A stretch of DNA of 64,000 bases from assembly GCA_023898465.1 (NCBI GenBank), contig CP060223.1:768001-832000 (forward strand), written 5' to 3'. A model generated the notes under the pieces. That model was not told the DNA's origin, did not search any database, and saw only the letters and a list, made by a program, of their open reading frames with translations. The first letter of the stretch is position 1. Each line of letters opens with the position of its first letter. Source of the DNA: Candidatus Nomurabacteria bacterium. Lineage in GTDB: Bacteria > Patescibacteriota > Patescibacteriia > HK-STAS-PATE-3. Positions 9,029 to 59,062 of the stretch are shown in pieces. Position numbers and translations under genes: made by a program.

Positions 9029-9050
9029 TTTCAACCTATAAGTTAGAGAG

Positions 9051-9124: not shown

Positions 9125-9133
9125 AACAAACGG

Positions 9134-16380: not shown

Positions 16381-16457
16381 AATTTTCTTGACCAGGACTT
16401 GACGAGATGCCACGCAAGCTGGTACAAGACCAGTTGTACTTTAAGTAAAGTGAACTC

Positions 16458-18944
16458 ATGGCCAAGCAACTTATCATTGTTGAGTCGCCGACCAAGGCAA
16501 AAACTATTGCCAGATTCCTCGGCAAAGATTACACCATCCGATCATCGAACGGACATGTTCGTGACTTACCGAAAAGCACTCTCGGTGTTGATGTCGATGA
16601 TGATTTTTCTCCCAGCTACGTCATTCCAACCAAAAGCAAGAAGCAAGTTGCTGAACTGAAGAAACTAGCTAAAGAGGCTGATGTCATCTATTTCGCAACT
16701 GATGAAGATCGCGAAGGTGAAGCTATCTCTTGGCATTTGGCTCAGCTACTCAAGCCAACAAAAGCTGAACTTAAGCGCATTACATTCCACGAAATTACCA
16801 AAGAGGCAATTGAAGCAGCCCTACAAAACCCTCGCACAATTGATGAAAACTTAGTTGATGCCCAGCAAGCCCGTCGCGTTTTAGACCGACTGGTGGGCTA
16901 TGAATTATCCCCTCTGCTTTGGAAAAAAATCGCCTACGGGCTGTCAGCCGGCCGAGTCCAATCCGTCGCGGTTGATTTAATTGTGCAACGTGAATTAGAG
17001 CGCATGCGTTTTGTTTCTGGTGCCTATTGGGATCTGCAAGCTCGGCTACAAAAAGACCAACAGAATTTCGATGCCAAACTGACCGCGCTTGATGGGCAAC
17101 GCATCGCGAATGGTAAAGACTTCTCTGAACAAACAGGGAAGCTCAAAGAAAAAAGTGACGCCATCTTAATTGACGCGAAACGAGCCAAAGAGCTCCAGGG
17201 CGATCTACAAGATGCTGAATGGAAAGTAAGTGATGTACAAGAAAAACCTCAGCAAGCTCATCCAGCCCCTCCTTTTATTACATCGAGTCTGCAGCAAGAA
17301 GCCAACCGTAAGCTGGGTCTGTCTTCACGGGACACTATGCGAATCGCTCAGCGTCTCTATGAAGAGGGTTTAATCACCTACATGCGTACCGACTCTCCTA
17401 ACCTCTCGCAGCAAGGTATTGCCGGTGCACGTGAGGCTGTTGAGCAAGGTTTTGGCAAAGAATTTCTCTCAGCCGCTCCACGTCAGTACAAGGCGAAAAG
17501 TCGCGGCGCCCAAGAAGCTCATGAAGCAATCCGGCCAGCCGGTGCACATTTCCGCTCACCTGATGCAGCAGGCTTAAGTGGTCGAGAAAAAGACCTCTAC
17601 GCCCTGATCTGGAAACGCACCTTAGCCACCCAGATGGCTGAAGCTAAGAAGCTTATCATGACTGTGAAGATTCAAGCCAAGCAGGCTGAATTCACGGCAA
17701 CAGGGACAACTATCCTCTTCCCTGGATTCTTAAAAGTATATGCCGACGGCGCAAAAGCAGATATTTTGCAGGACACCCTTTTGCCAAAGCTGAGCGTTGG
17801 CGATATTGCGAGCTTAGAAGAGTTAACACCTGAAGAGCATACTACCAAGCCACCGGCCCGTTTCAATGATGCGACCTTGGTAAAAACCTTAGAGCAAAAT
17901 GGCGTCGGCCGCCCTTCCACCTATGCTTCTATCATCAGTACTATTATTGACCGTAACTACGTCAGAAGGATTGGCAACGCCCTAGCTCCTACCTTTACCG
18001 CTTTTGCTGTTACCCAACTCCTCACCAAGCATTTCGCCCACCTGGTCGATACCAACTTCACTTCCAAAATGGAAGAGGAACTCGATCAAATCGCCGAGGG
18101 GAAACTTTCCTGGAAGCCTTATATTAAAAATTTCTACTCAGGTGAGGAGCATTTTCATCAACAGGTTGAAGAACAAGAGGATAAGATTGATCCAAATAAA
18201 TCTCGCAGTTTTACCCTGCCTCATCTCCCAAATGTAGAAATCCGCGTGGGACGTTATGGTCCCTATATTGTCAGTGAGAGTGGTAATGGCGATGATGATA
18301 CTCATGCGTCTATCCCAGAAGATCTGGCTCCAGCTGACTTAAGCGAAGAGCAAGTTCAGGAATTACTTGAGGTGCAGAAGAATGGACCAAAGCCAATGGG
18401 GCAGTACCCGGAAACTGGTGAACCAATCTACGTGTTAACTGGCCGATTCGGTCCCTATCTCCAGGTCGGTGAAAAAACTGATGAAAATCCAAAGCCTCGT
18501 CGCGCCTCTATTCCGCGAGGAGTGAATCCGAACGAGTTAAGCATGGAAGACGCCCTAAAATATCTCAGCCTACCTCGGACGCTTGGCGCTCATCCTGAAA
18601 GTGGTAAGGATGTCGTTGCTAATGTAGGCCGATTTGGCCCCTATATTGTCCATGACGGCGATTTTCGCTCCCTGACTAAGGATGATGACGTTTATACGGT
18701 CAGCTTAGCTCGAGCGCTTGAATTACTGGCTCAGGAGAAAAAAGGACGACGAGGTGCCAAGGAGCTTAAAAAACTTGGAGAACATCCAAAAGATAAAAAG
18801 CCTGTCACTTTGCTCGAAGGTCGCTACGGCCCATACCTCAAGCATGGCCGGACAAATGCTTCATTGCCAAAAGACATAAAAGTAGAAGAGCTCACTCTGG
18901 AAAAAGCTGTCGAGATTCTCGCTGAAAAGAAAAAGAAGAAGTAG
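16458..18944 (+). CDS. topA: DNA topoisomerase I with C-terminal GRFGPY repeat domains (no Zn ribbons)
   Basis: Toprim N-terminus MAKQLIIVESPTKAKTIARFLG; active-site region; four C-terminal repeats VGRYGPYIV / TGRFGPYLQ / VGRFGPYIV / EGRYGPYLK; Lys-rich tail. Confidence 0.9.
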   Translation: MAKQLIIVESPTKAKTIARFLGKDYTIRSSNGHVRDLPKSTLGVDVDDDFSPSYVIPTKSKKQVAELKKLAKEADVIYFATDEDREGEAISWHLAQLLKPTKAELKRITFHEITKEAIEAALQNPRTIDENLVDAQQARRVLDRLVGYELSPLLWKKIAYGLSAGRVQSVAVDLIVQRELERMRFVSGAYWDLQARLQKDQQNFDAKLTALDGQRIANGKDFSEQTGKLKEKSDAILIDAKRAKELQGDLQDAEWKVSDVQEKPQQAHPAPPFITSSLQQEANRKLGLSSRDTMRIAQRLYEEGLITYMRTDSPNLSQQGIAGAREAVEQGFGKEFLSAAPRQYKAKSRGAQEAHEAIRPAGAHFRSPDAAGLSGREKDLYALIWKRTLATQMAEAKKLIMTVKIQAKQAEFTATGTTILFPGFLKVYADGAKADILQDTLLPKLSVGDIASLEELTPEEHTTKPPARFNDATLVKTLEQNGVGRPSTYASIISTIIDRNYVRRIGNALAPTFTAFAVTQLLTKHFAHLVDTNFTSKMEEELDQIAEGKLSWKPYIKNFYSGEEHFHQQVEEQEDKIDPNKSRSFTLPHLPNVEIRVGRYGPYIVSESGNGDDDTHASIPEDLAPADLSEEQVQELLEVQKNGPKPMGQYPETGEPIYVLTGRFGPYLQVGEKTDENPKPRRASIPRGVNPNELSMEDALKYLSLPRTLGAHPESGKDVVANVGRFGPYIVHDGDFRSLTKDDDVYTVSLARALELLAQEKKGRRGAKELKKLGEHPKDKKPVTLLEGRYGPYLKHGRTNASLPKDIKVEELTLEKAVEILAEKKKKK

Positions 18945-20482: not shown

Positions 20483-21253
20483 TTACACTGCCTTTAGAAA
20501 AACCCGGTGCAATGTTGTGTTGTTGCTAGAGAGTATATAGCTCTCTGCATCACTTTTTGGCTTTTTCCCTTTCAGATCAGTAATCTTTGCCCCGGCTTCT
20601 CGAGCAATTAACAAACCTGCAAAGTAATCATAGTATTCATTGCCATACTGCACTACCGCCTCGATTCGGCCACTAGCTAATAAACAATAATCCAGTGCGG
20701 GTGACCAATTATTCACTATGCGACTAACGTCCAAATGGAATAGTTTATTGTATTGCCGAGCAACCCTTCGTCGATCGGTTGTATAGCCACAGGTGTATAC
20801 AATCGAGGCTCTTTCAATCTCATTCACCTTATTAACTCGGAGTCTTACTCCATTGCAAAAAGCGCCCTTTCCTAGCTCAGCGTAGTAAGTCTTCTGAAGC
20901 GAAGAATGATGCACCGCTCCGGCAATAACCTTACCTCGATAGGTTAAAGCGATTGATACAGAGAAGTATGGGATGCCCATAACAAAATTTCTCGTACCAT
21001 CCAAAGGGTCGATGACAAAACCATAGTCACTCTTATTATCCAGCTGTGTTTCTTCCTCGGCTGTAATGCTGTAACGAGGAAAGTGTTTGCGCAAATACTT
21101 CACTACTGCTCGCTCTGACTCTATGTCAGCTCGCGTCTGTAAATCAGAGGCGATAGTTTTTTGCTTGGTAGCTAATTGAGTGCCAAAGTATTTACGATGT
21201 ATACGTCCACCGAGTTCAGCGGCCCGGATAATGTGTCGTATACGGGTAGTCAT
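20483..21253 (-). CDS. inositol monophosphatase / FBPase-family phosphatase
   Basis: IDPLDGTRNFVMGIPYFSVSIA and the WSPALDYCLLASG motif. Confidence 0.7.
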   Translation of the reverse strand: MTTRIRHIIRAAELGGRIHRKYFGTQLATKQKTIASDLQTRADIESERAVVKYLRKHFPRYSITAEEETQLDNKSDYGFVIDPLDGTRNFVMGIPYFSVSIALTYRGKVIAGAVHHSSLQKTYYAELGKGAFCNGVRLRVNKVNEIERASIVYTCGYTTDRRRVARQYNKLFHLDVSRIVNNWSPALDYCLLASGRIEAVVQYGNEYYDYFAGLLIAREAGAKITDLKGKKPKSDAESYILSSNNTTLHRVFLKAV

Positions 21254-23499
21254 TATTCCTCGTCATTGCCACTACCCTGCAATTCGCTCAGCAGGCTCTG
21301 CGCATCAACATTCTCCGGATCAAGCTGCAGGGCAGTGTTTACCTGCGAAAGCGCGCTCTCAGTCTCATCGATTGCCTGATAAGCCTGGGCAAGAGCGAGT
21401 CGGACCTGCACGTTTCGCGGCGTGATATTTACAACAGTCGTCAGTAATTGAATTGCCTTATTGTAGTCACCATTTAAGCCTTCGTGGCGGGCCAGCTCAA
21501 AAAGCACATCTGGATCATTTGGATAATCCATAGCTAAGGTACGTAACATATCACGGGCCAATGCTTCATTGCCCAGTAATTCATGTGTTAAGGCGAGATG
21601 ATAGCGAGTGTCTAAATCACCTGGCGCTAAATCAAGCGCTTTTGTTAGATGGGTATATGCCGATTGAAGCAGCGCATCAGCTTGCCCGGCCGTGCTTTCA
21701 TCTTTAGCGAGCTGCTGTGAGCTGACTAACTCGAGCTTCGCCCAGTTACGATAGTGCTTCACGTTATTTGGCTCAATGGCAATAAGCGCTTCAAGCATGT
21801 CTTGCTCAGCTAAGGGGCTAGTACCGGCTAAGAGTCGGATAGCTGGAATATAACGAAGTGCCTGCTCATATACCACTGGGTTTTTAGGATCCAGGGAAAT
21901 AGCCTGCTCAATCGGATCAACTGCTGACAAAGCCAGCTGTTTCTGCAATGTTTGATCCTCGCTTAGCTGAGCACTTACAAGGGCATGCTCGGCAGAATCA
22001 AGGCGATACGTTGCTCGCCAAGGATCCAATGAAATGGCGTGATCAATCGTAGCCTGCACGCTTTGCAATGGTTCGGTGTTGAGGATGGCTGTTCGCGCTT
22101 GCGTAATGTAGACGCTTCCAAACCATACGCGCAGCTGACCATACCAAAGTCCAACAAAGAGAAGTAGGGAAAATGCCACAACGCCCCGAAGAAACTTATT
22201 CGATGGCTGGGCAGTTTTTTCTTTACCATACATTCCCAGGATGCCGATACTCAACCAAAGGGAAAGCGAAACAAGCATGGAGCCTGGGGTGAAGAAGATA
22301 ATCAAAAGGTTCAAGAGGAAAAACCAAATTGCCAAGCTTTGAAAATCGCCCTGTTTCTTTTTTTGATCAAGTATGGTCCCACTGCTCTGCCAAACTAAAC
22401 GAGCTAAAAGCCACAGGAAAAGCAATCCTCCGAGAATCCCTGTGCCAGCAAAAACCTGCAGCCAATAGTTATCCGGTCGACTGAAACGAACATCAGCGTA
22501 GGAGCTGGTATTCAAATCAATTGGCCGATAAGAAACTAAATCATAATAAAAAGTGGAAGGCCCACTACCGAGAATCGGCTGACTGCTCAGCGTCGACAGA
22601 CTGACTCGAGCTGAACTGCTTGCGGGCATGGTAATATCGACACCATAACTTTTGCCAGAATACTTACTGACTGACAAACTGAGCAAAAGAATCCCCACCA
22701 ACATGGCAGCGATAATCCACGCATCGGCAAAAGGACGCTGCTTCAATACCACCCGTGTCAGAAGTAAAAGCACCACACCCGCTACGATGCAGAGGGCTGC
22801 TAGGTAGACATCCACAAAAAGCAAAACGAGCAAGTGAATAGACATCACCAGGCTGAGCAGTACGCGTGAAATCGCGTGTGAGGTATTGCGCCACAGCTGC
22901 CAGGCCAAGAAGAATTGAAGTACACTCAGTAAAGCGAGTACGCCGGGTGAACCAGCTAATGGATGAAACGCTTCGGGTATACCGGTGCCAGGGAAAAGTG
23001 GTACTCCGGCGAGGTGAATAAAGCTTAAGAGACTGGCTAGCGCACCGGAAGTAAGGAATAAGCTCAGATAAAAACGTCCGCACGACTCGTCAGTGGTCTG
23101 ACGCAACAGAAACGCGAAGAGGATGAAGTAGAAACTAGCCAATGCGGTATCGCTTTGCGTCCCTGACATGCCGAAGAGACTAACATAAGGCTGCACGGAA
23201 AAAATGGTGCTCAATAGTAGCGCTAAGGCAAAGAGCCCTAAACTCAGACTTAACCAATCAAAACGACCTTGCCACTGCTGCGCACGCAATGACCAGAGCA
23301 ACCAAGCAATCATAGCAACTGAGACTCCGAGTGCGAGGAGTATCATTTTTGGCAACTCCCAAAAGTCAGAAAAGCCGCTGTAGTAGATAAGCGGCAAGAA
23401 GAAAATAACTGCCCCCAGAGCTGTCCGAATGGTCAGCAGATAAGATGAAGTATGTGACTTACGTGGTGATAGTCGTGATGATGTTCTCAAGTTCTTCAT
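21253..23499 (-). CDS. O-antigen ligase-like (Wzy_C) polytopic membrane protein with C-terminal TPR repeats
   Basis: More than 10 TM helices in the N-terminal two-thirds; C-terminal third has repeated TPR-like units (ALSQVNTALQLDPENVDAQ, ALDLAPGDLDTRYHLALTHELLGN...). The start is ambiguous, as the ORF overlaps the parB 3' end. Confidence 0.6.
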   Translation of the reverse strand: MKNLRTSSRLSPRKSHTSSYLLTIRTALGAVIFFLPLIYYSGFSDFWELPKMILLALGVSVAMIAWLLWSLRAQQWQGRFDWLSLSLGLFALALLLSTIFSVQPYVSLFGMSGTQSDTALASFYFILFAFLLRQTTDESCGRFYLSLFLTSGALASLLSFIHLAGVPLFPGTGIPEAFHPLAGSPGVLALLSVLQFFLAWQLWRNTSHAISRVLLSLVMSIHLLVLLFVDVYLAALCIVAGVVLLLLTRVVLKQRPFADAWIIAAMLVGILLLSLSVSKYSGKSYGVDITMPASSSARVSLSTLSSQPILGSGPSTFYYDLVSYRPIDLNTSSYADVRFSRPDNYWLQVFAGTGILGGLLFLWLLARLVWQSSGTILDQKKKQGDFQSLAIWFFLLNLLIIFFTPGSMLVSLSLWLSIGILGMYGKEKTAQPSNKFLRGVVAFSLLLFVGLWYGQLRVWFGSVYITQARTAILNTEPLQSVQATIDHAISLDPWRATYRLDSAEHALVSAQLSEDQTLQKQLALSAVDPIEQAISLDPKNPVVYEQALRYIPAIRLLAGTSPLAEQDMLEALIAIEPNNVKHYRNWAKLELVSSQQLAKDESTAGQADALLQSAYTHLTKALDLAPGDLDTRYHLALTHELLGNEALARDMLRTLAMDYPNDPDVLFELARHEGLNGDYNKAIQLLTTVVNITPRNVQVRLALAQAYQAIDETESALSQVNTALQLDPENVDAQSLLSELQGSGNDEE

Positions 23500-24331
23500 C
23501 TGAATAAAAATCAATGGTAATGCTGCCACGTCCTTTGCGACGAGTGATGCGGACTTTGGTATTTAATGCGCTGCGTAGACTATCCTCTAGCGCGGCGATT
23601 TCGGGATTACGAGCCTGCGCCGCTGCTCCATGTGAAGAATGACTGCGACGCAGATCTTCGCCTCCTCGGACTGTTAAATCTTTCTTCATAATCGACTGCC
23701 AGAGCTTAATCTGCTCTGTCGGATCAACTTCACTTAAGATAACCTTCGCGTGACTCATCGTAATAGCGCCGTCACGCAAACTCTTCTGTACTTCGACCGG
23801 CAGATTAAGCAAGCGAAGGATATTGGCTACTGTCGCGCGCTTCTTCCCAACCCGACGCGCTACTTCCTCTTGAGTTAATGCAAATTCATCGATCAAGGCG
23901 CGATACGCCTCAGCCTCTTCGATTGGCGAAAGGTCTTTACGTTGAATATTTTCAATCAAGGCTAATTCTAGCTTTGACTGGGCTGAAGCGGTACGGACAA
24001 TAGCCGGCACAGTAGCGAATTCCAAAGTGCGAGCTGCCCGAAATCGCCGCTCGCCTGCTACCAATTCATAGCTGCCACTAGAAAGCTTTGTCACAATGAG
24101 TGGCTGGAGTATGCCATGTGCTTTGATTGAGGCAATTAAATCTTCTTGGGCTTGATAATCAAAATGCTGCCGAGGCTGATGTGGATTAGCCACGATTTGC
24201 TCGACTGGAATTTTTTCTACCCGCTCTCCATCAGTCGGTAAAGAGCGTAGGGCGGGATTCACTCCTGGGTTTTGGGTACCAGGCTTCGGAATCAATGCGG
24301 AAAGACCGCGACCAAGGACAGGTTCACTCAT
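23459..24331 (-). CDS. parB: chromosome partitioning protein ParB
   Basis: GERRFRAA box and HTH LIENIQRKDLSPIEEAEAYRALIDEFALTQEEVARRVGKKRATVANILRLL. Confidence 0.9.
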   Translation of the reverse strand: MSEPVLGRGLSALIPKPGTQNPGVNPALRSLPTDGERVEKIPVEQIVANPHQPRQHFDYQAQEDLIASIKAHGILQPLIVTKLSSGSYELVAGERRFRAARTLEFATVPAIVRTASAQSKLELALIENIQRKDLSPIEEAEAYRALIDEFALTQEEVARRVGKKRATVANILRLLNLPVEVQKSLRDGAITMSHAKVILSEVDPTEQIKLWQSIMKKDLTVRGGEDLRRSHSSHGAAAQARNPEIAALEDSLRSALNTKVRITRRKGRGSITIDFYSDEELENIITTITT

Positions 24332-25104
24332 GTATGATGTGGGCTTAATACTTCGCGAGCAAGGCGACTATAGGCTCGAGCACCGCGCGAATCAGGATCA
24401 TGTTTCAAAATAGGACGTCCATGCGATGGCGCTTCGGCTAAATGCACATTACGTGGGATAACGGTGCGGAAAATACGATTTGGGAAATAGCGATAAAGCT
24501 CTTGAAGCACTGCATCAGAAAGTTTGTATCGACTGTCGTACATGGTAAGGACTGCGCCAAGCACTTCTACGTTCGGTTGAATGCTTTCTTTCACTAGTTG
24601 AATAGTCTCCAGTAACTGACTCAAGCCCTCTAAAGCCAAATACTCACACTGCACCGGGATAAGCACCTCGCGGGCTGCGGTTAAGCCGTTAATGGTCAAC
24701 ATGCCGAGCGAAGGAGGGTTATCAATAAGTACGTAGTCGTATTGCTCGGCAATCTCGGGAATAGCACGATCGAGTTGACCTTCTCGACCATCCATATTTA
24801 CCAATTCAACATTGGCTCCAGCTAAGGAAACTGTCGCGGGGGCGATATGATAACGATCATGCGCAGTTGGTTGAATTATCTCTGAGAGCGCCGCCGCTCC
24901 AAGCAAGGTCTCGTACACACCGCGCTCTAACTCACGATGCTTAATACCTAAACCACTTGTTGCATTGGCCTGCGGATCAAGATCAATTAAAAGTACACGA
25001 GCACCATAATGGGCAAGATAGGCACCCAGGTTAATTGCGGTTGTGGTTTTTCCAACCCCGCCTTTCTGATTTACGATAGAAATAATTCGCGCCATAGCGT
25101 GCAA
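24328..25104 (-). CDS. parA: chromosome partitioning ATPase ParA/Soj
   Basis: Deviant Walker A IVNQKGGVGKTTTAINLGAYLA; overlaps parB by 4 nt. Confidence 0.9.
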   Translation of the reverse strand: MHAMARIISIVNQKGGVGKTTTAINLGAYLAHYGARVLLIDLDPQANATSGLGIKHRELERGVYETLLGAAALSEIIQPTAHDRYHIAPATVSLAGANVELVNMDGREGQLDRAIPEIAEQYDYVLIDNPPSLGMLTINGLTAAREVLIPVQCEYLALEGLSQLLETIQLVKESIQPNVEVLGAVLTMYDSRYKLSDAVLQELYRYFPNRIFRTVIPRNVHLAEAPSHGRPILKHDPDSRGARAYSRLAREVLSPHHT

Positions 25105-27260: not shown

Positions 27261-27794
27261 TTAACTTTCCCCAATTTCGCTTTTTCCTAACCAAGCGTCA
27301 ATCGTCCACTTCCATGATTTACGCCATACAAGGAAAATAGACAATACAATCAAACCTAAATCCTTTAAGAGCGCTTCAGTCGGTGTCGCTCCGATCGAGA
27401 AAGTACCAAAGCAACCACAATCGATGTCTGTGTTCCCTCGAGCAATATTAATACTAATGGCAATGATAAAGCTCAAGAGCATAAGCGTGAGCGCTCCAGC
27501 CGCCCATCGACGCCAAAATCCAGCCAACACAAAGAGACCGCCCAATAACTCAATCCACGGCGTCACCAATGCGAATATACTTACCATACCCTCGGGAAGT
27601 AATTCGTAGGTGCGAATCGCTGCCTCAAATTCCTCCACTGGCGCCATGAGCTTCCCAAGCGCGGCGTAAACAAAGATTCCACCGACCAGCAAGCGAGCAA
27701 GCCATTCTAAGGCAATCAGCCAGCGCTTAGTTGTTGGCATTGACCTCGGATTGGTCAGTCGATGCAGTAGCGTCCGCTTCGGCAATTGCGGCAT
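27261..27794 (-). CDS. MauE/DoxX-family membrane protein (CGC motif), candidate redox partner of the adjacent DsbA-like proteins
   Basis: Four TM helices and the characteristic NTDIDCGCFG motif; overlaps and is co-oriented with the first DsbA-like gene. Confidence 0.6.
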   Translation of the reverse strand: MPQLPKRTLLHRLTNPRSMPTTKRWLIALEWLARLLVGGIFVYAALGKLMAPVEEFEAAIRTYELLPEGMVSIFALVTPWIELLGGLFVLAGFWRRWAAGALTLMLLSFIIAISINIARGNTDIDCGCFGTFSIGATPTEALLKDLGLIVLSIFLVWRKSWKWTIDAWLGKSEIGES

Positions 27795-28527
27795 CGATCA
27801 CGGACTTCCAATTATCAGTGGTCATACCACCGACACGTCGCTCTCCATTGATGAAGAAGGTAGGAGTAGAATTTACCTTACGAGCATTACCTTCCCCAAT
27901 ATCAGTATTTACCGCTTCTTTTTGCTCGGTATTATCTATACAGCTTTGAAAAGCTTCGGAATCAATCCCAAGGTCAGAAGCGTACTGCACAAAAGTGTCA
28001 GTAACGGTGGAGCCGCTTAATACTGACCAGCTCGCTTGCTCCTCAAAAAGTTTATCGTGATACTCCCAGAACTTACCTTGCGCGAATGCACATTGTGCCG
28101 CCTCTGCAGCTGCTCGTGCATTTTTGTGAATGGTAGTTAAGGGATAATCATTGTACACAAAGCGCACATCATTTGGATATGCCGCCAACACTTCAGGGAG
28201 ATTTGTATCTGCTGCCTTACAGGCTGGACACTGGAAATCTGAGTACTCTTCAATTAAGACCTTTGCGGTTTCAGGACCTCGGCTTGGGTCGTTATCGTTT
28301 GAGAAATCACCTGCTGTACTTGTATTGTCACTACCCTGGAAAGCCCAAATACCTCCTCCAACAACCACTACAAGAATGATGACAGTCCAAATAAGCTTTT
28401 TCATACGGGCTGACTGGGCACCTTTTTCTCGGTTTGCCATTTTTTCTTGGCGTCGTAATTCTCGTCGCTGTTTTTTGGTTAGCTGCTGTTCTGTATTATC
28501 GTTCATAGCTTTGTAGAAAAGTATCAA
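27727..28527 (-). CDS. DsbA/BdbD-like thioredoxin-fold protein (CPAC active site), membrane-anchored
   Basis: N-terminal TM; SDFQCPACKAADTNL...FVYNDYPLTTIH...AQCAFAQGKFWEYHDKLF. Confidence 0.75.
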   Translation of the reverse strand: MILFYKAMNDNTEQQLTKKQRRELRRQEKMANREKGAQSARMKKLIWTVIILVVVVGGGIWAFQGSDNTSTAGDFSNDNDPSRGPETAKVLIEEYSDFQCPACKAADTNLPEVLAAYPNDVRFVYNDYPLTTIHKNARAAAEAAQCAFAQGKFWEYHDKLFEEQASWSVLSGSTVTDTFVQYASDLGIDSEAFQSCIDNTEQKEAVNTDIGEGNARKVNSTPTFFINGERRVGGMTTDNWKSVIDAAIAEADATASTDQSEVNANN

Positions 28528-29170
28528 GTAGTCCTAAATCCCAGGTTAAAGTTTGCTCGCTTTGTCCGGGGATGGCAATAGTCAATTGTAAGGTTTTTGG
28601 ATTCACTTTATCGATATCCAATCCTTCTTCACTTGTCCGGGCAAAGGCTACTAAGCCAATACGTTGATTGACTTCAGAGGCTGGCAAGAGCACTGAGTTA
28701 GCCTCTGACCACTGCTGCACGGGATATACATTACCCTCATCATCACTTAAGCTAACAATTTCCTCAGGATCAAATTCAGAAAGTTCATCATCTGAACTAG
28801 CTAAGGTGAGGTAGAAGACGATTGTATCAGTATTTGGCTTCAGGATGGCTAAACGATCAGCAACTTCACCCTGATGCCCTGATTTGGTGGGAAGCGCCTC
28901 TAATGCACTAGCCAGCTCTGGGAAAAAATAGCTCGCTTCTACCAATATCTTTGCATTCGTATCACCACTCCGCCAGCCAGCATCAAAGTAATCAGTAAAG
29001 ACGCCTTCGGGGGAAGTATCGCTTGAGGTATTACTAAGGAGTGTAGTGTCGCTAATAGAACTCGATCCATGCGGCCAACTTAGCCACACTCCGAAGATAA
29101 TTACCACAATACCAAAAGCCCAGAACCACACGGGCAAACTGGGCTTTGGTGTAACTTTCTTACGTGGCAT
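28496..29170 (-). CDS. secreted/membrane-anchored hypothetical protein within the Dsb cluster
   Basis: N-terminal TM/signal WFWAFGIVVIIFGVWL; acidic; no motif recognised. Confidence 0.4.
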   Translation of the reverse strand: MPRKKVTPKPSLPVWFWAFGIVVIIFGVWLSWPHGSSSISDTTLLSNTSSDTSPEGVFTDYFDAGWRSGDTNAKILVEASYFFPELASALEALPTKSGHQGEVADRLAILKPNTDTIVFYLTLASSDDELSEFDPEEIVSLSDDEGNVYPVQQWSEANSVLLPASEVNQRIGLVAFARTSEEGLDIDKVNPKTLQLTIAIPGQSEQTLTWDLGLLDTFLQSYER

Positions 29171-29184
29171 GCTGCCGAATCGTT

Positions 29185-29967
29185 CTAGAGTAACTGGTCA
29201 ATAACTGATTTGAAGCTGGCGTACGGAAGTGCGCCGCTAATCAATTGACCAGTAGTGACATCGTCACCCTGTAAGACAAAGGTGGCCGGAGTACCAGACA
29301 CACCAGCGAGTTCTCCTTCACTCATATCAGCCTGTACATCATCATCATACTTCTTGCTCTGGTAGCAATCATTAAACTTATCAACGTTTAGTCCGAGATC
29401 GCTCGCTACCTGACTGTAATAGGAGTCGCTCATTGAAGACTGCGTTGCGAATATCTTATCGCCAAACTCCCAAAACTTATCTTGCTCAGCAGCACATTCA
29501 GAAGCATTTGCCGCTGGTAGCGCTTGAGGGTGAATCGAAGTGAGTGGGAAATGTCGATACACTAGAGAAACAGTGTCAGGATTCTCATCAATAATTCGCT
29601 GCAAGGTTGGGTGAAGGTTGCTGCAGTATGGGCACTGGAAATCAGAGAACTCTACCAGTACTACTTTTGCTTTAGAAGGGTCAGCGCCAAGGTAATGATC
29701 ATCCTTGGTTGGCTTGCTAATAGCCGATGCGTTGCCGGTCGGGGCTGCAGCTGCAGAGGTGTTTGTATTTGCTGCGGCCACTGTATCGGTTCCCTTTACT
29801 GTTGCAGTTGAAGCGCCACCGCCAAACATAATAAAGCCCAGCGCAGTAAGTGCTACGCCAACAAAAAGACCCAACATAAATGTGGTCTTGGGAGGTGCAT
29901 CGAGGATGCCGGCTGGACGTGAGCCTTCACCCGATGGCACGTTACGAACTACTGGAGATGGTGTCAT
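29185..29967 (-). CDS. DsbA/BdbD-like thioredoxin-fold protein (CPYC active site), paralogue 2
   Basis: SDFQCPYCSNLHPTL...VYRHFPLTSIHPQAL...ECAAEQDKFWEFGDKIF. Confidence 0.75.
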   Translation of the reverse strand: MTPSPVVRNVPSGEGSRPAGILDAPPKTTFMLGLFVGVALTALGFIMFGGGASTATVKGTDTVAAANTNTSAAAAPTGNASAISKPTKDDHYLGADPSKAKVVLVEFSDFQCPYCSNLHPTLQRIIDENPDTVSLVYRHFPLTSIHPQALPAANASECAAEQDKFWEFGDKIFATQSSMSDSYYSQVASDLGLNVDKFNDCYQSKKYDDDVQADMSEGELAGVSGTPATFVLQGDDVTTGQLISGALPYASFKSVIDQLL

Positions 29968-30043
29968 GTGCTCGAGAATTTAAGAAAAAAATGAAATGCC
30001 TAAGTGATGGATAGTATACGAATTTTGAGCCCGTATTGTCAAT

Positions 30044-30772
30044 TTACTCTAACAACCCTTCTATCAACTGCTGAAAAGTGGCAAAAGGTAGGGCCCCTTC
30101 AATTTTTCTTCCGTTTACAAAAAACGTAGGCGTGCCACGAACCCCTAAATCCAAGCCGTCGGAAAAATCGTCCAAAATTTCATTCTCATATTTGCCACTA
30201 GTTATACAACTCGTAAACTCATCTTCTTTCACTCCGGCTAATCTAGCCCAAGCCAGGATATTTTCCTGCGTCATTTCGTCTTGTCCAATAAACATACGAT
30301 CATGGAGCGACCAATATTGATTTGAGCCTTGTTCCCAAGCACACTGCCCTGCTTCAGCCGCAAATAACGCGAGTGGATGAGCCTCAGTAACTGGGTAATC
30401 ACGAAAGACAAAACGAATTTGCCCACTGTAGGTATTCATAAGCTGACGTACGGTTGGAAACACCTCCTTACAATAGGGGCATTGGTAATCTCCAAACTCA
30501 ACAATAGTTACTGCAGCATCAGCAGGACCGAGTGATGGATCATTTTCACCGACCAGTTGAGCATCGAGATTGCTATTTGTGTTTACTCCCTGATTTTGCT
30601 GGGTATTAAACGTAAAACTACTGGTATCGCTAGTGATAACCTTTTGCAAGGAATGAATAGTAAGCCCGACGTATCCGCCACTCAAAATAATGAAAAGCGC
30701 GCCAAGACCAAGTACCCATGGTTTCATATACCAAGGGCGACTTTTTTGTACATACGATGGCACGTCTTGCAT
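30044..30772 (-). CDS. DsbA/BdbD-like thioredoxin-fold protein (CPYC active site), paralogue 3
   Basis: GDYQCPYCKEVFPTV...FVFRDYPVTEAHPLAL...QCAWEQGSNQYWSLHDRMF. Confidence 0.75.
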   Translation of the reverse strand: MQDVPSYVQKSRPWYMKPWVLGLGALFIILSGGYVGLTIHSLQKVITSDTSSFTFNTQQNQGVNTNSNLDAQLVGENDPSLGPADAAVTIVEFGDYQCPYCKEVFPTVRQLMNTYSGQIRFVFRDYPVTEAHPLALFAAEAGQCAWEQGSNQYWSLHDRMFIGQDEMTQENILAWARLAGVKEDEFTSCITSGKYENEILDDFSDGLDLGVRGTPTFFVNGRKIEGALPFATFQQLIEGLLE

Positions 30773-50556: not shown

Positions 50557-52040
<1,484 letters not shown>

Positions 52041-52341
52041 TAAAGATTTTTTATTACCGCATCCGAAGATGAGGCACCAGAAAGATCTTCAAAACTGGTA
52101 TGGAATCATTATTGGGATTCATGTGTACCGATCACGCTCGAACTGTCAACGATCTGAACTATTTTTTCTTATCTTTATGGGGCGTCCGAGCGTGAGCGGC
52201 GCATCCCCATCAGAGTGAAGAAAAAACAGTGGAATCCGATTCGAAAATCAGACGCTACTGTTTTTCCTTACACCGTCCTGCTAGTTGTTAGGGCAGAGGG
52301 TATGTGAAGGCTTGTTTCCAGCTAATCGTAAGAGCATGCAC

Positions 52342-53261: not shown

Positions 53262-54032
53262 TCACTTGGCGGGAGAATTCTGTTTTTTGCCCACTAGCCT
53301 ATCCCCCAACTTATCCCAGTTCACCTTGAGCATGAGATAAACTGCCAACACGGAAAGTACAAGAGTGAGGACATTCGAGACAAGATTCGACTGATTTGAC
53401 CCGGCCACGGCTGAGGCTATATTAGTGTACTTACCAAAGGCAGCTAATCCGATAGTAATAACCATTTTACCGAGAGCAACCGGTATAAGCATGCGGATAA
53501 ATCCATAGCGCAAAAAACCAAGCGGCACGATAAAGATGTCGTCTGGAATTGGCGTTGCACCAATCAAGAAAAGTACGATGTAGACATACCAGCGCTTATG
53601 CTCGATCAAGCGCTTCAATACATCCAGATTTTTTTTGTACACATCATTCGTCAACTTCTGACCAAAGTAACCCAGGAAGTAGGAGGAACCTTCTCCTAAA
53701 CCAGCTCCAACCCCGGCAATAATTCCAAGGAGGAGAGGATTAATATCAGCCGCCGCAATTAGCACGATAACCACCGTATATGGTATCGGCACCACAATGG
53801 AGAAATTAGCTAAGAACGAAATGAGAAAGCCGCCTATGTAGCCCTGCGTTGCGCTAAGCGAAATCAACCAATCCCAAAAACGATTAAGTCCGTCACGGAC
53901 TGCTGGCACTCCGGTTACTAACCAAATGTAGGCGGCAATAACCAGCAGGGTGATAACGAGGAAGCGTTCTTCTTTACCAAATCGTACTCTCATATGCTTG
54001 AGGGATGTTTCCGATACTGCTTTTTTCGCCAA
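53262..54032 (-). CDS. DedA/SNARE-associated (TVP38/TMEM64) family membrane protein
   Basis: Multi-TM with the DedA signature region GKMVITIGLAAFGKY...; 256 aa. Confidence 0.65.
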   Translation of the reverse strand: MAKKAVSETSLKHMRVRFGKEERFLVITLLVIAAYIWLVTGVPAVRDGLNRFWDWLISLSATQGYIGGFLISFLANFSIVVPIPYTVVIVLIAAADINPLLLGIIAGVGAGLGEGSSYFLGYFGQKLTNDVYKKNLDVLKRLIEHKRWYVYIVLFLIGATPIPDDIFIVPLGFLRYGFIRMLIPVALGKMVITIGLAAFGKYTNIASAVAGSNQSNLVSNVLTLVLSVLAVYLMLKVNWDKLGDRLVGKKQNSPAK

Positions 54033-54664
54033 GCCGCAATATCAGCATGGTTTCCGGTGAGTAATTCTTTTGGCACGCGCTTGCCTTTATACACTTCCGG
54101 TCGAGTATACTGCGGGTACTCAATCTGATCTGGACTATGAGAAAAAGTTTCATCAACTGAGGAGGCGTCATCACCTAAAACACCAGGGAGAAGTCGAGTG
54201 ACCGCATCAATAACCACCATTGCCCCAAGCTCTCCTCCGGTTAAGACGTAGGGCCCGATAGAAATTTGCTGATTTACTAGGCTACGAATTCGCTCATCAA
54301 AACCTTCGTAACGACCAGAGACAAGTATGAGCTGATCCAGTTGTGCGAGCTCTCGCGCTTTTGCCTGGGTGAGAAATTGCCCTTGAGGTGAAAGCAGGAT
54401 CACCTGCTTCTTCTTTGTACGAGGAGGAAGTGTCCGCCCGGCCACTTTGCGAAGCGCCCGATCAATCGGCTCTACCTTCATGAGCATACCAGGGCCACCG
54501 CCATAGGGCTTATCATCCGTAGTGTGGTGCTTATCTGTTGCGTAGTCGCGGATGTTATGCACGCGAAGATCCAGCAGTTTTTTCTGCTGCGCCCGCTTCA
54601 ATATGCTTTCGTTACAATAATCCGACACCATGTTCGGAAAAATCGTCAGTACATCAATACGCAT
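53990..54664 (-). CDS. trmD: tRNA (guanine37-N1)-methyltransferase
   Basis: MRIDVLTIFPNM...YATDKHHTTDDKPYGGGPGMLMKVEPI...GGELGAMVVIDAV. Confidence 0.9.
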   Translation of the reverse strand: MRIDVLTIFPNMVSDYCNESILKRAQQKKLLDLRVHNIRDYATDKHHTTDDKPYGGGPGMLMKVEPIDRALRKVAGRTLPPRTKKKQVILLSPQGQFLTQAKARELAQLDQLILVSGRYEGFDERIRSLVNQQISIGPYVLTGGELGAMVVIDAVTRLLPGVLGDDASSVDETFSHSPDQIEYPQYTRPEVYKGKRVPKELLTGNHADIAAWRKKQYRKHPSSI

Positions 54665-54736
54665 GGGCCTATTGTAGCGCGAAGTGGCCTATCCTTCCAG
54701 TTGACATAAAGGCAATTCTCCAGTACCTCTAGAATT

Positions 54737-55090
54737 ATGTCACAACGATTCTTTCGCACCCTAATACTCAGTCTAGCCGGTCTAGCCCTGCCCAGCCTCG
54801 TCTTTGCTCAGGACTTCCCTGATATCGGCTCGCAAATTGGTTTAGGTGGTGCCGACCCACAAACTGTTATCGTAAATATCATCCAAACCCTCCTTGGCTT
54901 TGCTAGCCTGGTGGCACTGGTCTTTGTTATCTTAGGTGGTTTCCAATGGATGTTGTCTGCCGGGAATGATGAAAAAATTGCCCGGGCAAAGAAAACCATT
55001 AGCGCGGCAATTATCGGAATTATTATTGTGCTGATCTCTTGGGCAATAGTGCAGTTTGTCATCAACACTGTTCTAGAGGTAACGCAATAG
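54737..55090 (+). CDS. TrbC/VirB2-like pilin-type small membrane protein (signal peptide plus two TM helices)
   Basis: Signal peptide ...LVFA/QD; GGADPQTVIVNIIQTLLGFASLVALVFVILGGFQWMLSAGNDEKIARAKKTISAAIIGIIIVL is typical of VirB2/TrbC-like pilins common in Patescibacteria. Confidence 0.55.
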   Translation: MSQRFFRTLILSLAGLALPSLVFAQDFPDIGSQIGLGGADPQTVIVNIIQTLLGFASLVALVFVILGGFQWMLSAGNDEKIARAKKTISAAIIGIIIVLISWAIVQFVINTVLEVTQ

Positions 55091-55179
55091 CCAATAAGTA
55101 GCAAGGAGCAAGGATTGCTTCTAAAAAACTCATAACAAAAACCCCAGGTCATGACACGCTGGAGTTTTTGTTTTGTTGA

Positions 55180-55533
55180 CTAGAGTTTCAGGTCGTCAAC
55201 CGCACTGGTGTCTTCCGCCATCGGTGCGCTGTCCTCTTCATGTGAAGGGGCCTGACGCATACGATCGCTCTTTCGGAAGCCTTCTGGCTCGAAAATCTTC
55301 AGGTTGACCCGGGCGTGATTCTTTGCCCCGACAACGCGAAGTAGCGTGCGGACTGATTTTGCGGTCTGACCGTTGCGGCCAATTACTTGGCCAAGGTCCT
55401 GAGGATTTACCTTGAGCGTAATCAAAACACCCATCTCATCGACGGTACGCTCAGTGGTAACGTCCTCTGGACGATCCACAATCGATTTGACCACGAACTC
55501 GACAAACTCCTGATCGCTGTGCTGTTCTGCCAT
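55180..55533 (-). CDS. KH-domain RNA-binding protein (KhpA/YlqC-like) with C-terminal extension
   Basis: KH GxxG loop VIGRNGQTAKSVRTLLRVVGAKN; position between rpsP and trmD. Confidence 0.7.
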   Translation of the reverse strand: MAEQHSDQEFVEFVVKSIVDRPEDVTTERTVDEMGVLITLKVNPQDLGQVIGRNGQTAKSVRTLLRVVGAKNHARVNLKIFEPEGFRKSDRMRQAPSHEEDSAPMAEDTSAVDDLKL

Positions 55534-55686
55534 AGATACAGTCCTGTGGTTACTACAGATGCCAGCGGTCGACCTTTCCGTCCGCCCTCACCCTCTAGGA
55601 ACGAGCAGAGGAATCCAGGCTGGCGTGTTCGAGTGTACAAAAAATAGCCCGGTGCTGTCAATACGTCCCAAGCATTTTTTAACTAC

Positions 55687-56118
55687 TTATTCGGCTTTTG
55701 GCTCTGCCTCAGCTGGCGCTTCTTCCTTTGTTTCAGCTGCCTCTGGCTTGGCTGCTTCCTCGGCTGGAGCTTCTGTAGCTTCCTTTGGAGCTTCGGCTGG
55801 GGTCTCGGCTGGCTTTTCGCTAGCTGCTTCAGCCTCGGCGCCCTTCTTCTTGATTGCGCCCTTGCGTCGCTTCTCGCCCTTAATCACGCCTTGATTTATC
55901 AAGAGGTTATGGACGGTATTTGAGCACTGGGCACCCTGGGAAATCCAATATTGGACCCGTTCGGTATTTACCTGAACGGTTGAGGGCTCGGTATGAGGGT
56001 TATAATTGCCCAAAAGCTCTAAATAACGGGCTTTTGGATCGCGCGCCTTTTCGGAAATAACAATCCGATAGGTTGGTTTCTTGCGCTTTCCGAATCTGGA
56101 TAGTCGAATCATTAACAT
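55687..56118 (-). CDS. rpsP: 30S ribosomal protein S16 with about 65-aa Ala/Glu/Pro/Lys-rich C-terminal extension
   Basis: MLMIRLSRFGKRKKPTYRIVISEKARDPKARYLELLGNYNPHT; tail AEAEAASEKPAETPAEAPKEATEAPAEEAAKPEAAETKEEAPAEAEPKAE. Start chosen at the internal Met. Confidence 0.85.
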   Translation of the reverse strand: MLMIRLSRFGKRKKPTYRIVISEKARDPKARYLELLGNYNPHTEPSTVQVNTERVQYWISQGAQCSNTVHNLLINQGVIKGEKRRKGAIKKKGAEAEAASEKPAETPAEAPKEATEAPAEEAAKPEAAETKEEAPAEAEPKAE

Positions 56119-56365
56119 ACCAGCATATAGTACGGAAATCTCGGAAAGTGTCAAGTGGGTGGCTAAATACTAAGCACAAAATACGAAATACTAAACAAGC
56201 ACGAAATGCAAATTGATACATACTGGGAAATATTTAGAAATAAGGAAGCTTCAATTTGTTTCGAACTTCGTACTTCGGATTTCTAATTTTCTAAATGAAA
56301 TGCTACACTATTCCTTGTCCCATCCTTATTATTAGCGCTGCTACGCGACTAGACTCCGAAACGTC

Positions 56366-59062
56366 ATGTACCTCCAGAAGCTCGAGATCCAAGGCTTTAA
56401 GTCATTCGCAAAAAAAGTAGACTTCGACTTCACTCGGGGGATCGCCGCAATTGTCGGACCAAACGGTTCAGGCAAATCAAATGTGGCTGATGCCGTGCGT
56501 TGGGTGATGGGCGAACAGAGCATGAAAGTGCTACGCGGCAAACGGGCCGACGACGTTATTTTCTCTGGATCGGACAAGAAAGGCCGCCTCGGTATGGCCG
56601 AGGTAAGCCTGGTTTTTAATAACGAAGATGGAACCATGCCCATCGACTTCGCTGAAGTCGCTATCACCCGCCGTGTCTATCGTAACGGCGAAGGTGAGTA
56701 TTTTGTAAATAAACAACCTGCTCGACTGGCTGACATTATACTCATGTTGGCAAAATCTAATGTGGGACAAAAAGCCTACTCCGTCATTGGTCAGGGCATG
56801 ATCGACCAAGTGCTCATTGCTACACCACAGGAACGTAAAACCTTCTTTGACGAAGCTGCCGGCGTCCGACAATTTCAAATCAAGCGAGAGCAGGCTGAGA
56901 ATAAACTAAAGGCAACGCGATCAAACCTCGCCCAAGCCGAGCTCCTCATGCAGGAGGTTGAGCCGCGTTTGCGCACTCTGACCCGCCAAGTCCGCCGACT
57001 GGAGCGCCGACAAGAGGTAGAACAGGAACTGCGCGCCCTGCAGGAAGCCTACTATAGCCAGGTCTGGGCCGATTTGAGTGAACGACATGCGACGGAAAAG
57101 AAACACTATGATGAGTTAGAGGCTGAGCAGCATAAAGCCGCCAAAGAACTGGAACACATCCAGCGAGAACTCGAAGCGATTGAGCAAGAGCGCGGCCAAG
57201 ACGATGCCTTCCGAGAACTGCAACAGCAATACAGTCGCCTCTTGGATGAAAAAAACGCGCTAATGAAGGAACAGGCCGTCCTGCGTGGCCGCCAAGAACT
57301 CGAAGCGAGTCAACAGGGCCAATACGATGTTGTCTGGTTGAAGAATAGAAAAGAGGAATTAGAGCGTACGATCAAGGAAATTGATGAAGAGTTAGAACAA
57401 CTCAGTACGCAGCTCGCTAAAGAACAAGCGCATTTTGAACAGCAATCGCTTGAGCGGGATAAAGTCGTGCAAGAGTTTGAAAGCATCGAGGCAAAGCTTG
57501 TTCAGGCCTCGAGCGAACTGCGCAATGAAAAATCCTTTGATGCTGGCAAGTTTCAAAAAACCCTCTCGACAACCAAGGCTGCCTACGAGGAGCTCCTTAG
57601 CGCACTCAACAGCCTAGAATCCTTAGAGCAACTGCCGAAGTTAAAGAGTCAGGCAGCAAAAATTGATGCGGATCTGGCTGAAATGCTCGATAGTATCAAC
57701 CAAGAAGAGAAAGCTGATCACTCTCAAATCGTGCTTGAGCTGCAGGCTAAGCTCACTCAGTTCATGAAGACAAAAGACAGTCTGGTCAATGAGCTGCACG
57801 CGTTGGAGAATAAAACGAACCAGCTGAAGGAGAAACACGCAGCGCTCAAGCACTATCGCGATCGCCTCCAAGGTGAGTTGGACAAAGTGCTGCGCGAACT
57901 CACTCGCGCCAACATCAAGCCAGAAGACAAAGGTAAGGCTGATTCGCTTTTCCGCAAAGAAGACGCTGAACTAGAAAAGAAAGTGAACGAACTTGATGAG
58001 CGACTGAAGGCGCTCGCCCACGACATCCAGGGCTTTAATAAAAAGGCGCAAGACAAGCGTGAACGGCTCTTCAGCCTACAAAAATCTTTCCGTGAAAGCC
58101 AACAACGACTCAATGCTGAAAATGCAAAGTTAAATGCGATTCAAGTCGAGCTGGCTAAACTCGAAACTCGTCGGAATGACCTGGAGCAAGAGTTTACTGC
58201 TGAGGTGGAAAGCGCGCTCGCCGAAAAGATCAAAAAGGCGACAAGCGAAAAAATCGCTGAGGTAAAGCCGGTCGAATACTATCAAGAAGAAATCCGTCGC
58301 TGCAAGCACTCACTCGAGCTGATTGGCGGTATTGATGAGGCTATTACTCAAGAGTACGAAACTACGAATGAGCGTTTTGAATTCCTGAAGAAACAGTCCG
58401 ATGATTTGCAGGAAGCTATGACGCATTTAGAGCAGGTAATAAGTGAGCTCGATGCGACAATTAAGAAGCAGTTTGATCAATCCTTCGAAAAAATCAATCG
58501 GGAATTCCAACACTACTTCCGAGTCCTTTTTCAGGGCGGTAAAGCTAGTCTCGTACTACGCAAAGAAGAAGTGCTCAAGAAGCTCGACGATGACGAAGAG
58601 GATGAAGATGACGACGACTTTGACGAAGATGAGGATGATGAAGAGGAGGAGCAAGCTCCAAAAATACAACCGAAAGGCGAGCTTGTTATTACAGGTATTG
58701 ATATCAATGCAACCCCTCCTGGCAAAAAACTGCAAAACATTACCATGCTTTCTGGCGGCGAGCGCGCTCTGACCTCGATCGCACTTATTTGCGCCATCAT
58801 GGCTAATAATCCCTCACCATTTGTCTTCCTCGATGAAGTGGATGCTGCCCTAGATGAAGCAAACTCTCAACGTTTTGCAAACATCATTGCCGAACTCAGC
58901 AATAAGACACAGTTTATCGTTGTCTCGCACAACCGCGCTACCATGGAAAAAGCCGCGCTTCTCTACGGTGTCACCATGGGTGACGACGGTATTTCAAAAG
59001 TCCTCTCCGTCAAGATGGAGGAGGCTGAAAAGGTTATCCAGCAACACGGCAACCGTCAATAA
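56366..59062 (+). CDS. smc: SMC-family ATPase, short (898 aa), no recognisable hinge domain, poly-acidic insert
   Basis: SMC N-terminus [42 protein letters not shown]; C-terminus LSGGERALTSIALICAIMANNPSPFVFLDEVDAALDEAN...FIVVSHNRATMEKAALLYGVTM; continuous coiled coil between; insert DDDEEDEDDDDFDEDEDDEEEEQ. Confidence 0.75.
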   Translation: MYLQKLEIQGFKSFAKKVDFDFTRGIAAIVGPNGSGKSNVADAVRWVMGEQSMKVLRGKRADDVIFSGSDKKGRLGMAEVSLVFNNEDGTMPIDFAEVAITRRVYRNGEGEYFVNKQPARLADIILMLAKSNVGQKAYSVIGQGMIDQVLIATPQERKTFFDEAAGVRQFQIKREQAENKLKATRSNLAQAELLMQEVEPRLRTLTRQVRRLERRQEVEQELRALQEAYYSQVWADLSERHATEKKHYDELEAEQHKAAKELEHIQRELEAIEQERGQDDAFRELQQQYSRLLDEKNALMKEQAVLRGRQELEASQQGQYDVVWLKNRKEELERTIKEIDEELEQLSTQLAKEQAHFEQQSLERDKVVQEFESIEAKLVQASSELRNEKSFDAGKFQKTLSTTKAAYEELLSALNSLESLEQLPKLKSQAAKIDADLAEMLDSINQEEKADHSQIVLELQAKLTQFMKTKDSLVNELHALENKTNQLKEKHAALKHYRDRLQGELDKVLRELTRANIKPEDKGKADSLFRKEDAELEKKVNELDERLKALAHDIQGFNKKAQDKRERLFSLQKSFRESQQRLNAENAKLNAIQVELAKLETRRNDLEQEFTAEVESALAEKIKKATSEKIAEVKPVEYYQEEIRRCKHSLELIGGIDEAITQEYETTNERFEFLKKQSDDLQEAMTHLEQVISELDATIKKQFDQSFEKINREFQHYFRVLFQGGKASLVLRKEEVLKKLDDDEEDEDDDDFDEDEDDEEEEQAPKIQPKGELVITGIDINATPPGKKLQNITMLSGGERALTSIALICAIMANNPSPFVFLDEVDAALDEANSQRFANIIAELSNKTQFIVVSHNRATMEKAALLYGVTMGDDGISKVLSVKMEEAEKVIQQHGNRQ

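Follow-up and report, generated by a model that had tools for sequence, protein, structure and literature searches.

The hinge is regarded as a universal domain of SMC proteins and as part of their definition, and has been proposed to act as a DNA-binding site, as a DNA entry gate and, more recently, as a gate for the bypass of obstacles. Here, we describe an Smc protein of 898 residues without a hinge, encoded at 56366..59062 on the forward strand of a 64,000-nucleotide stretch of DNA, the window, from the ~1.08 Mb genome of a Candidatus Nomurabacteria bacterium (Patescibacteria, or candidate phyla radiation, CPR). There is laboratory precedent for such a protein. In Bacillus subtilis, growth is normal when the Smc hinge is swapped for the zinc hook of Rad50, and Smc function is indifferent to the fold of the apical dimerisation domain (PMC5344682); arm contacts, in addition, help hinge-less Smc to dimerise (PMC5526789). 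In 2025, a monophyletic cluster of hinge-less SMC proteins, branching near Actinobacteria, was reported from ocean metagenomes and called new biology (PMC12153180).

The window Smc is like the B. subtilis type (Smc-ScpAB) in its head, neck, joint, antiparallel arm, rnc...smc...rpsP-khpA-trmD neighbourhood and ParAB; it differs in the missing hinge, in arms of ~220 rather than ~340 residues and in an acidic loop within the head. The Smc of Magasanikbacteria (~1020 residues; P0163, P0221 and P0223) is 41–45% identical to it and has the same locus, arms, helix breaks and acidic loop. Unlike the window Smc, however, it has a hinge, matching PF06470 at E 1e-26 to 1e-32 and carrying the G-rich motif GD..EK.GV.RGG. 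The B. subtilis proteins Smc(Zh) and Mini-Smc (Burmann et al. 2017, PMC5344682) are also comparable in having a small unrelated apical element and/or permitted shortened arms. These were made in the laboratory and have a proven dimeriser that depends on metal, whereas the helical hairpin that we describe at the Patescibacteria apex occurs naturally, lacks metal ligands and is a putative dimeriser. With the ocean clade, compared by architecture alone, the window Smc shares an SMC head with antiparallel coil, no hinge, no CxxC, hosts known only from metagenomes and apparent status as the only SMC; PMC12153180 does not describe Patescibacteria, arm-length classes, a hairpin or an acidic loop. Rad50/SbcC, RecN, MukB/MksB/JetC and ASRP, an archaea-specific SMC-related protein, likewise have an ABC head with a coiled-coil insertion, and Rad50, RecN and ASRP share the absence of an SMC hinge; the window Smc has no zinc hook. 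Our literature search, which left subscription journals mostly uncovered, returned nothing on a Patescibacteria hinge-less Smc, the hairpin, arm classes of hinge-less forms or the acidic loop, and nothing specific on ScpAB in CPR.

The smc gene was defined by open reading frame (ORF) calling, Pfam, TIGRFAM and database relatives. Its frame, taken to end at TAA, TGA or TAG, begins with ATG and comprises 898 codons plus the stop; as TGA, TAA and TAG each terminate long ORFs in the window, the standard genetic code applies. The initial annotation, made from the sequence without database searches, had the coordinates and the length exactly right, and the protein is shorter than a textbook Smc, as it said. 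Pfam SMC_N spans residues 2–877. The N-terminal half of the ABC ATPase head (residues 1–167; 56366..56866, forward strand), delimited by Pfam, PDB alignment, AlphaFold2 (AF2), Foldseek and motifs, contains the Walker A motif GPNGSGKS at residues 31–38 (nt 56456–56479) and the Q-loop residue Q143 (nt 56792–56794). The C-terminal half (residues 723–898; 58532..59059, forward strand), placed by PDB alignment, motifs and alignment to B. subtilis Smc, contains the signature LSGGE at residues 795–799 (nt 58748–58762), the Walker B motif and D-loop FVFLDEVDAALD at residues 819–830 (nt 58820–58855) and the H-loop residue His855 (nt 58928–58930), all on the forward strand. The head thus carries the full set of Walker A, Q-loop, LSGGE, Walker B, D-loop and H-loop, among them every motif by which it had initially been recognised as a canonical SMC head. 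No CxxC was found in the 898 residues, which include cysteines only at 646 and 809.

Against TIGR02168, the SMC_prok_B equivalog model, the protein scored 686.8 bits (cutoff 567.35). Its best solved relatives in a PDB sequence search were the Smc heads of B. subtilis and Geobacillus (E 1e-119), and the top Foldseek match of its AF2 model was 5xei, an Smc head with joint, with 5xg3 at a TMt of 0.88–0.90. The surrounding genes agree with this assignment. A reverse-strand block of trmD (53990–54664), a KH-domain khpA-like gene (55180–55533) and rpsP (55687–56154), together 53990..56154, adjoins smc and is inverted relative to it. In relatives at 46–53% identity, the order is L32-nusB-rnc...smc-rpsP-khpA-trmD, which we take to be the classical Firmicute-type smc neighbourhood; the upstream L32-nusB-rnc block precedes both a hinge-bearing and a short relative, the synteny is common to mid-length, short and hinge-bearing forms, and rpsP follows smc in 46 of 85 loci. 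Judged from gene order, smc sits at its ancestral locus. Clustering of flanking ORFs across the 85 loci gave no conserved unknown partner beside smc, only housekeeping families and spurious antisense ORFs. Because of the equivalog score and the conserved synteny, we assign the gene as the housekeeping, chromosome-organising Smc orthologue rather than a paralogue. The earlier label 'SMC-like' had the family right, but it is too weak for what TIGR02168 and synteny identify as a true Smc orthologue.

We also considered an SMC-like paralogue, either a defence ATPase (Lamassu LmuB, MADS mad3 or Wadjet JetC) or a repair ATPase (RecN or SbcC/Rad50). PADLOC reported mad3 at 220 bits (E 1e-65) and LmuB at 88 bits, two families that also have no SMC hinge, and the NCBI name of the protein is merely 'AAA family ATPase', with relatives named likewise, or as SMC or hypothetical protein. 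Both PADLOC matches, however, cover the ABC head only and fall far under the 687-bit Smc score. The comparison with MukB, MksB and JetC families that had been suggested at the outset gave no MukB Pfam match at E ≤ 1, and a JetC match of at most 52 bits confined to the coiled coil. Scores for Rad50 (59 versus a cutoff of 847 bits), SbcC (28 versus 478), RecN (TIGR00634; 49 versus 408) and ASRP (NF045487; 82 versus 300) are all far under their cutoffs, which, with the absence of CxxC, bears out the earlier view that the protein is neither Rad50/SbcC nor RecN; RecN is, besides, a protein of ~550 residues whose coiled coil is short. The neighbours are rpsP, khpA, trmD, rnc and nusB, without defence or nuclease partners; specifically, no Mre11/SbcD, MukEF or JetAB(D) partner genes were found near smc. 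The same locus, moreover, holds hinge-bearing orthologues. A paralogue is thus largely refuted, and we regard it as very improbable. As a separate observation, the cross-match of mad3 to a housekeeping Smc head means that defence annotation pipelines could mislabel hinge-less Smc.

Searches for a hinge were uniformly negative. SMC_hinge (PF06470) gave no match in the whole protein at E ≤ 1 and none in residues 301–530 searched alone at E ≤ 10, where only coiled-coil noise appeared; this interval includes residues 380–520, in which a hinge hit had been named as the outcome that would overturn the initial annotation. A hinge hidden Markov model (HMM) built locally was likewise negative, and PDB searches with the apex sequence and with an apex profile returned neither an SMC or MukB hinge nor a Rad50 hook. 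In an AF2 model built on 80 relatives (mean predicted local distance difference test, pLDDT, 79.6), residues 168–722 are all helical, with no strand, and the chain reverses at a four-residue turn, 416–419. The same pipeline applied to the hinge-bearing relative P0163, as a positive control, produced a confident alpha/beta hinge of eight strands at residues 415–570. Independently of AF2, family-averaged hydrophobicity has a strong heptad (3.5-residue) periodicity over residues ~176–720 that is absent in the heads and dips at the AF2 helix breaks. The earlier proposal that there is no globular hinge is therefore upheld by Pfam, PDB, apex-profile and AF2 evidence alike. A coiled coil was also expected, and the heptads and predicted helices agree with it; it is not, however, 'uninterrupted', as conserved breaks fall at 274–277, 313–321, 388–392, 416–419, 450–451, 515–521 and 614–658.

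The same architecture is widespread in Patescibacteria. The best 120 database matches are all Patescibacteria proteins of 871–938 residues without a precomputed hinge domain, and a search of 50%-identity representatives resolved three or four length classes. By Pfam and the local hinge HMM, 268 of 278 retrieved relatives are hinge-less, and the ten with a hinge are all 995–1035 residues long. Among reference genomes, 64 of 85 loci encode hinge-less forms, and the state follows lineage: Magasanikbacteria are hinged in nine of nine cases (~1020 residues), Moranbacteria are hinge-less in all 17 (~770–800 residues), and Uhrbacteria, Doudnabacteria and Falkowbacteria are hinge-less. From these distributions, hinge loss is a lineage trait, and the window protein is one of a very large radiation of hinge-less Smc in Patescibacteria. 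Many records behind the loci, among them L016, L022, L024, L026 and L027, are binchicken entries titled 'uncultured Gammaproteobacteria' or 'Bdellovibrionales' and are probably mislabelled.

In a genome assembled from a metagenome, one might suspect a faulty assembly or an internal deletion, or else a hinge too divergent for HMMs. But the ~890-residue architecture recurs in hundreds of independent assemblies at 45–65% identity; the arm ends are separated by only ~60 residues, which could not accommodate a hinge of ~150–180 residues; AF2 predicts nothing but helices at the apex; and an hhalign comparison of the hairpin profile with the hinge profile returned a probability of 0.14%. With 268 of 278 relatives hinge-less and the state lineage-consistent, we conclude that the trait is real. 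The artefact is refuted for practical purposes, its probability being negligible.

In place of the hinge is an apical module of residues 388–451 (57527..57718, forward strand), defined by AF2, heptads, conservation and the control model. It consists of a break (388–392), a helix (393–415), a turn (416–419), a second helix (420–449) and a further break (450–451). All of the extra residues of the hinged relatives insert within window residues 385–464 of the alignment. Once a 19-residue N-terminal head offset is allowed for, the N-terminal arm of P0163 ends at residue 408, equivalent to window residue 389, and its helix breaks 293–296 and 336–338 correspond to 274–277 and 317–319. A hinge region of ~183 residues in the hinged relatives thus corresponds to a helical hairpin of ~60 residues in the window Smc.

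The hairpin is kept, with the same heptad positions, in 201 of 201 mid-length, 35 of 46 short and 21 of 22 long hinge-less proteins. Its sequence is poorly conserved (~37% mean column identity); it includes a conserved basic residue (K/R) at 427. It gives the strongest heptad signal of the whole protein, and its first helix has conserved hydrophobic positions, 404 and 411, beyond a and d, weak evidence from sequence for a further packing surface. Its retention with the same heptad positions, its top heptad signal and these extra hydrophobic positions argue that the hairpin is under selection. Two identities for it were tried and rejected. It is not a hinge remnant by any detectable homology (the hhalign probability of 0.14% given above), nor does it resemble a known dimeriser, since all that the apex profile retrieved from the PDB were helical bundles, generic or designed, and Lpp.

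On either side of the hairpin is an arm helix. The N-terminal arm helix comprises residues 168–387 (56867..57526), with breaks at 274–277 and 313–321 and a highly conserved neck at 168–220. The C-terminal arm helix, defined by AF2, heptads and Foldseek, comprises residues 452–722 (57719..58531) and includes the joint-region discontinuities at 614–658 (nt 58205–58339) with their conserved LELIGGID loop; the joint is strongly conserved, like the neck. Each arm helix is ~220 residues long and colinear, in length and breaks, with those of hinge-bearing Patescibacteria relatives. A distal arm module is formed by residues 322–387 on the N-terminal strand (57329..57526) and 452–514 on the C-terminal strand (nt 57719–57907); all these features are on the forward strand. 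The two halves are gone together in a short class of ~745 residues, which is without window residues ~320–387 and ~455–524 (2 of 46 and 1 of 46 short proteins, respectively, keep these segments), and this paired loss confirms the antiparallel register of the arms. In the long class, the distal arms contain additional helix. The model and alignments together show a canonical head, neck and joint with antiparallel arms.

Measured between the head anchors EEAAG and LFxGG, the spans of hinge-less proteins cluster sharply at ~413 (n = 39), 548 (n = 174) and 716 residues (n = 21). The span of the window Smc is 554 residues, compared with ~674 in hinge-bearing relatives, so hinge loss accounts for a net ~120 residues. 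Subtracting the hairpin module (64 residues) and an estimated head-boundary correction (~46 residues) gives estimated arms of roughly 150–160, 220–225 and 300–310 residues for the three classes. Prokaryotic Smc arm lengths cluster at 163, 238 and 341 residues (PMC5344682), and our estimates resemble these modes but sit somewhat below them. As hinge-bearing relatives share the short-arm class, the shortening of the protein has two separable parts, namely hinge loss and membership of a known short-arm class of prokaryotic Smc (PMC5344682).

A neighbour-joining tree of the heads only, with 30 bootstraps, implied 4–5 changes of hinge state and at least 17 changes between short and mid classes in every replicate, with the short and mid classes intermixed; since distances within and between classes are near equal and deep nodes are unresolved, we do not claim a number of hinge-loss events.

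It is reasonable to suppose that a hinge-less Smc may dimerise differently from canonical SMC. The joint explanation that we favour, and consider probable, is that the window protein is an Smc orthologue that lost its hinge, with hairpin-capped arms that form a rod dimer recruited by ParB for loop extrusion. Two hinge-less molecules would still form a rod-shaped dimer, held by a four-helix bundle of the two paired hairpins, by contacts between arms lying side by side, or by both, with the heads additionally bridged by ATP and kleisin. By analogy with Smc-ScpAB, ParB would recruit the complex, which would use ATP to extrude DNA loops and so organise the chromosome. Such a hairpin-capped model fits with the B. 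subtilis result, cited above, that the apical fold is irrelevant.

ParAB is the system that usually serves bacterial Smc in chromosomal loading and partition. Both of its genes lie in the same window as smc, an association by presence alone: parB (23459–24331, reverse strand; N-terminal, helix-turn-helix and C-terminal domains by Pfam) and parA (24328–25104, reverse strand; Pfam). For ScpA and ScpB we used B. subtilis-type probes validated against the PDB, in which ScpA is identical to 3zgx_C over the first 86 residues and ScpB matches 3w6j_B at 3e-61 and also detects the M. tuberculosis and Chlorobium proteins, along with motif regexes and HMMs built locally from 63 ScpA and 80 ScpB sequences. 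Among 4069 ORFs from the window and 88 smc neighbourhoods, the best match to either had E 0.067. An ScpB profile search of the database returned only Bacillaceae in its best 120 matches, and of 80 ScpB loci in a metagenome scan none was recognisably Patescibacterial. As judged from these searches, scpAB do not adjoin smc; in other bacteria, too, they are usually unlinked to it.

Several points weigh against the hairpin-capped, ParB-recruited dimer. The evidence for a dimerising role of the hairpin consists of its conservation and heptad pattern, and the hydrophobic excess of helix 1 is modest, 0.30 versus ~0.21 of columns. One relative, P0122 (L007 10001–12439; 812 residues, 55% identical), seems to be without most of the hairpin: it lacks window residues 394–430 and 442–471 and keeps the distal arm, and is possibly a natural hairpin-less form or an alignment artefact. 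The parS consensus TGTTNCACGTGAAACA does not occur above chance in the window, with no site at ≤2 mismatches and two at three mismatches (1.66 expected). The search for ScpA/ScpB partners, which the initial annotation had proposed as a check, found neither in the 64-kb window (Pfam on all ORFs of 150–300 residues) nor within ~10 kb of smc in 88 related loci (probes, motif regexes and HMMs). Finally, the gene is apparently the sole Smc of this genome, but a second, hinge-bearing SMC may lie elsewhere in it.

Some of these points would suit an apically open SMC, in which the hairpin is a mere cap and the dimer forms at the heads only, through ATP and/or kleisin, like a hook-less Rad50 or RecN. 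DNA would then be clamped or bridged at the heads, without enclosure in a long closed ring. The match of the apex profile to generic helical bundles only, the ~37% mean column identity of the hairpin, the P0122 sequence and the failure to find ScpAB near smc are all in keeping with this arrangement, as are the many changes of arm length among close relatives, which suggest relaxed constraint on the distal arm. However, the hairpin survives in proteins that have lost the arm module next to it, arm lengths are sharply divided into discrete classes, as expected if the geometry of a two-armed rod matters (PMC5344682), and the neck and joint are strongly conserved. We consider the open apex, and with it clamping or bridging at the heads, rather unlikely. 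Equally doubtful, in our estimate, is the broader proposition that the sole condensin of a large part of the Patescibacteria works without a hinge or any stable apical junction, closed only at the heads, possibly with a non-ScpA partner or none. If it were true, Smc could organise chromosomes with no hinge gate and without closing its long arms into a ring, and the arm classes (spans of ~413, 548 and 716) would reflect arm mechanics rather than hinge–head phasing.

A further departure from B. subtilis Smc is a disordered acidic loop in the C-terminal head, at residues 732–770 (58559..58675, forward strand), identified by AF2, composition and alignment to B. subtilis Smc. Within it, residues 741–762 (nt 58586–58651) form a near-pure run of 21 Asp/Glu and one Phe in 22 residues (≥95% D/E), rather than the 25-residue pure acidic run first described. 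The 39-residue loop has a net charge of ~−18, and pLDDT falls below 50 at 739–767, which predicts disorder. In alignment to B. subtilis Smc, it replaces three residues, an insertion of ~36 residues flanked by the strands that follow LFxGG and precede PPGKK, which places it inside the head fold and not, as had been thought, just before the C-terminal head. An enlarged loop (≥25 residues) is present in 252 of 279 proteins, hinged ones included, and is net-acidic (≤ −5) in 211; the loop of the long class is not acidic. As hinged relatives carry the enlarged loop too, it is independent of hinge loss, and by its distribution it is, within this Smc clade, a distinct and older trait.

HMMER aligns the window Smc with human SMC3 straight through this loop (SMC3 ~1058–1092). 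The SMC3 loop contains S1083, the ATM site on which the intra-S checkpoint depends (PMC3329402). The two are alike in being disordered, negative, ~35 residues long and at an equal position in the C-terminal head. They differ in that the SMC3 loop is acidic and Ser-rich, with charge that depends largely on phosphorylation, while the charge of the window Smc is constitutive; an independent origin is likely. We know of no function shown for either the SMC3 or the Patescibacteria loop in head mechanics. Most plausibly, though speculatively and by analogy, the acidic loop could do constitutively what the SMC3 loop does under control of phosphorylation, and tune the electrostatics between head and DNA or between head and partner.

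Apart from smc and parAB, the window has several features of its own. Small genes of the T4SS_pilin family recur near smc, at 54737–55090 (forward strand) in the window, at 21165–23057 in locus L006 and at 16376–16807 and 22641–23258 in locus L008. A cluster of seven tRNA genes (8351–9386), coincident with a GC-rich stretch, includes on the reverse strand at 8956–9028 a tRNA of 72–73 nt with anticodon UCA, labelled 'SeC' by ARAGORN, with the acceptor stem GGCGGGU/ACCCGCC and discriminator U73; we take it to be tRNA-Cys-like. TGA terminates 12 of 41 long ORFs under the standard code, and this tRNA may be an opal-suppressor or recoding tRNA. A tRNA-His in the same cluster (9050–9123, reverse strand) has the anticodon AUG, with A34, rather than the usual GUG. 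A complete 16S rRNA gene lies at 50559–52042 (reverse strand) with no adjoining 23S rRNA gene in the window, so that the rRNA operon is unlinked. An ORF at 4147–4722 (forward strand) encodes an IS200-like Y1 transposase domain that matches its profile over the N-terminal portion alone. At 27261–30772 (reverse strand), three tandem DsbA/thioredoxin-like genes, with an unannotated ORF (28496–29170) among them, and a MauE/DoxX membrane protein form a disulfide-handling cluster.

By descent, the window protein is an Smc; by the textbook structural definition, it is not. In practical terms, this matters for annotation, as hinge-less Smc is often named 'AAA family ATPase' and cross-matches mad3. The position that its acidic loop shares with the phospho-loop of SMC3 suggests recurrent electrostatic tuning of SMC heads. 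In its arms, the family offers a natural length series, with a paired module of ~66 residues present or absent, that bears on loading and loop extrusion. The hinged and hinge-less Smc proteins of Patescibacteria are matched natural pairs, hinge versus hairpin on identical arms, and as such a natural experiment on the purpose of the SMC hinge and its contribution to loading and loop extrusion.

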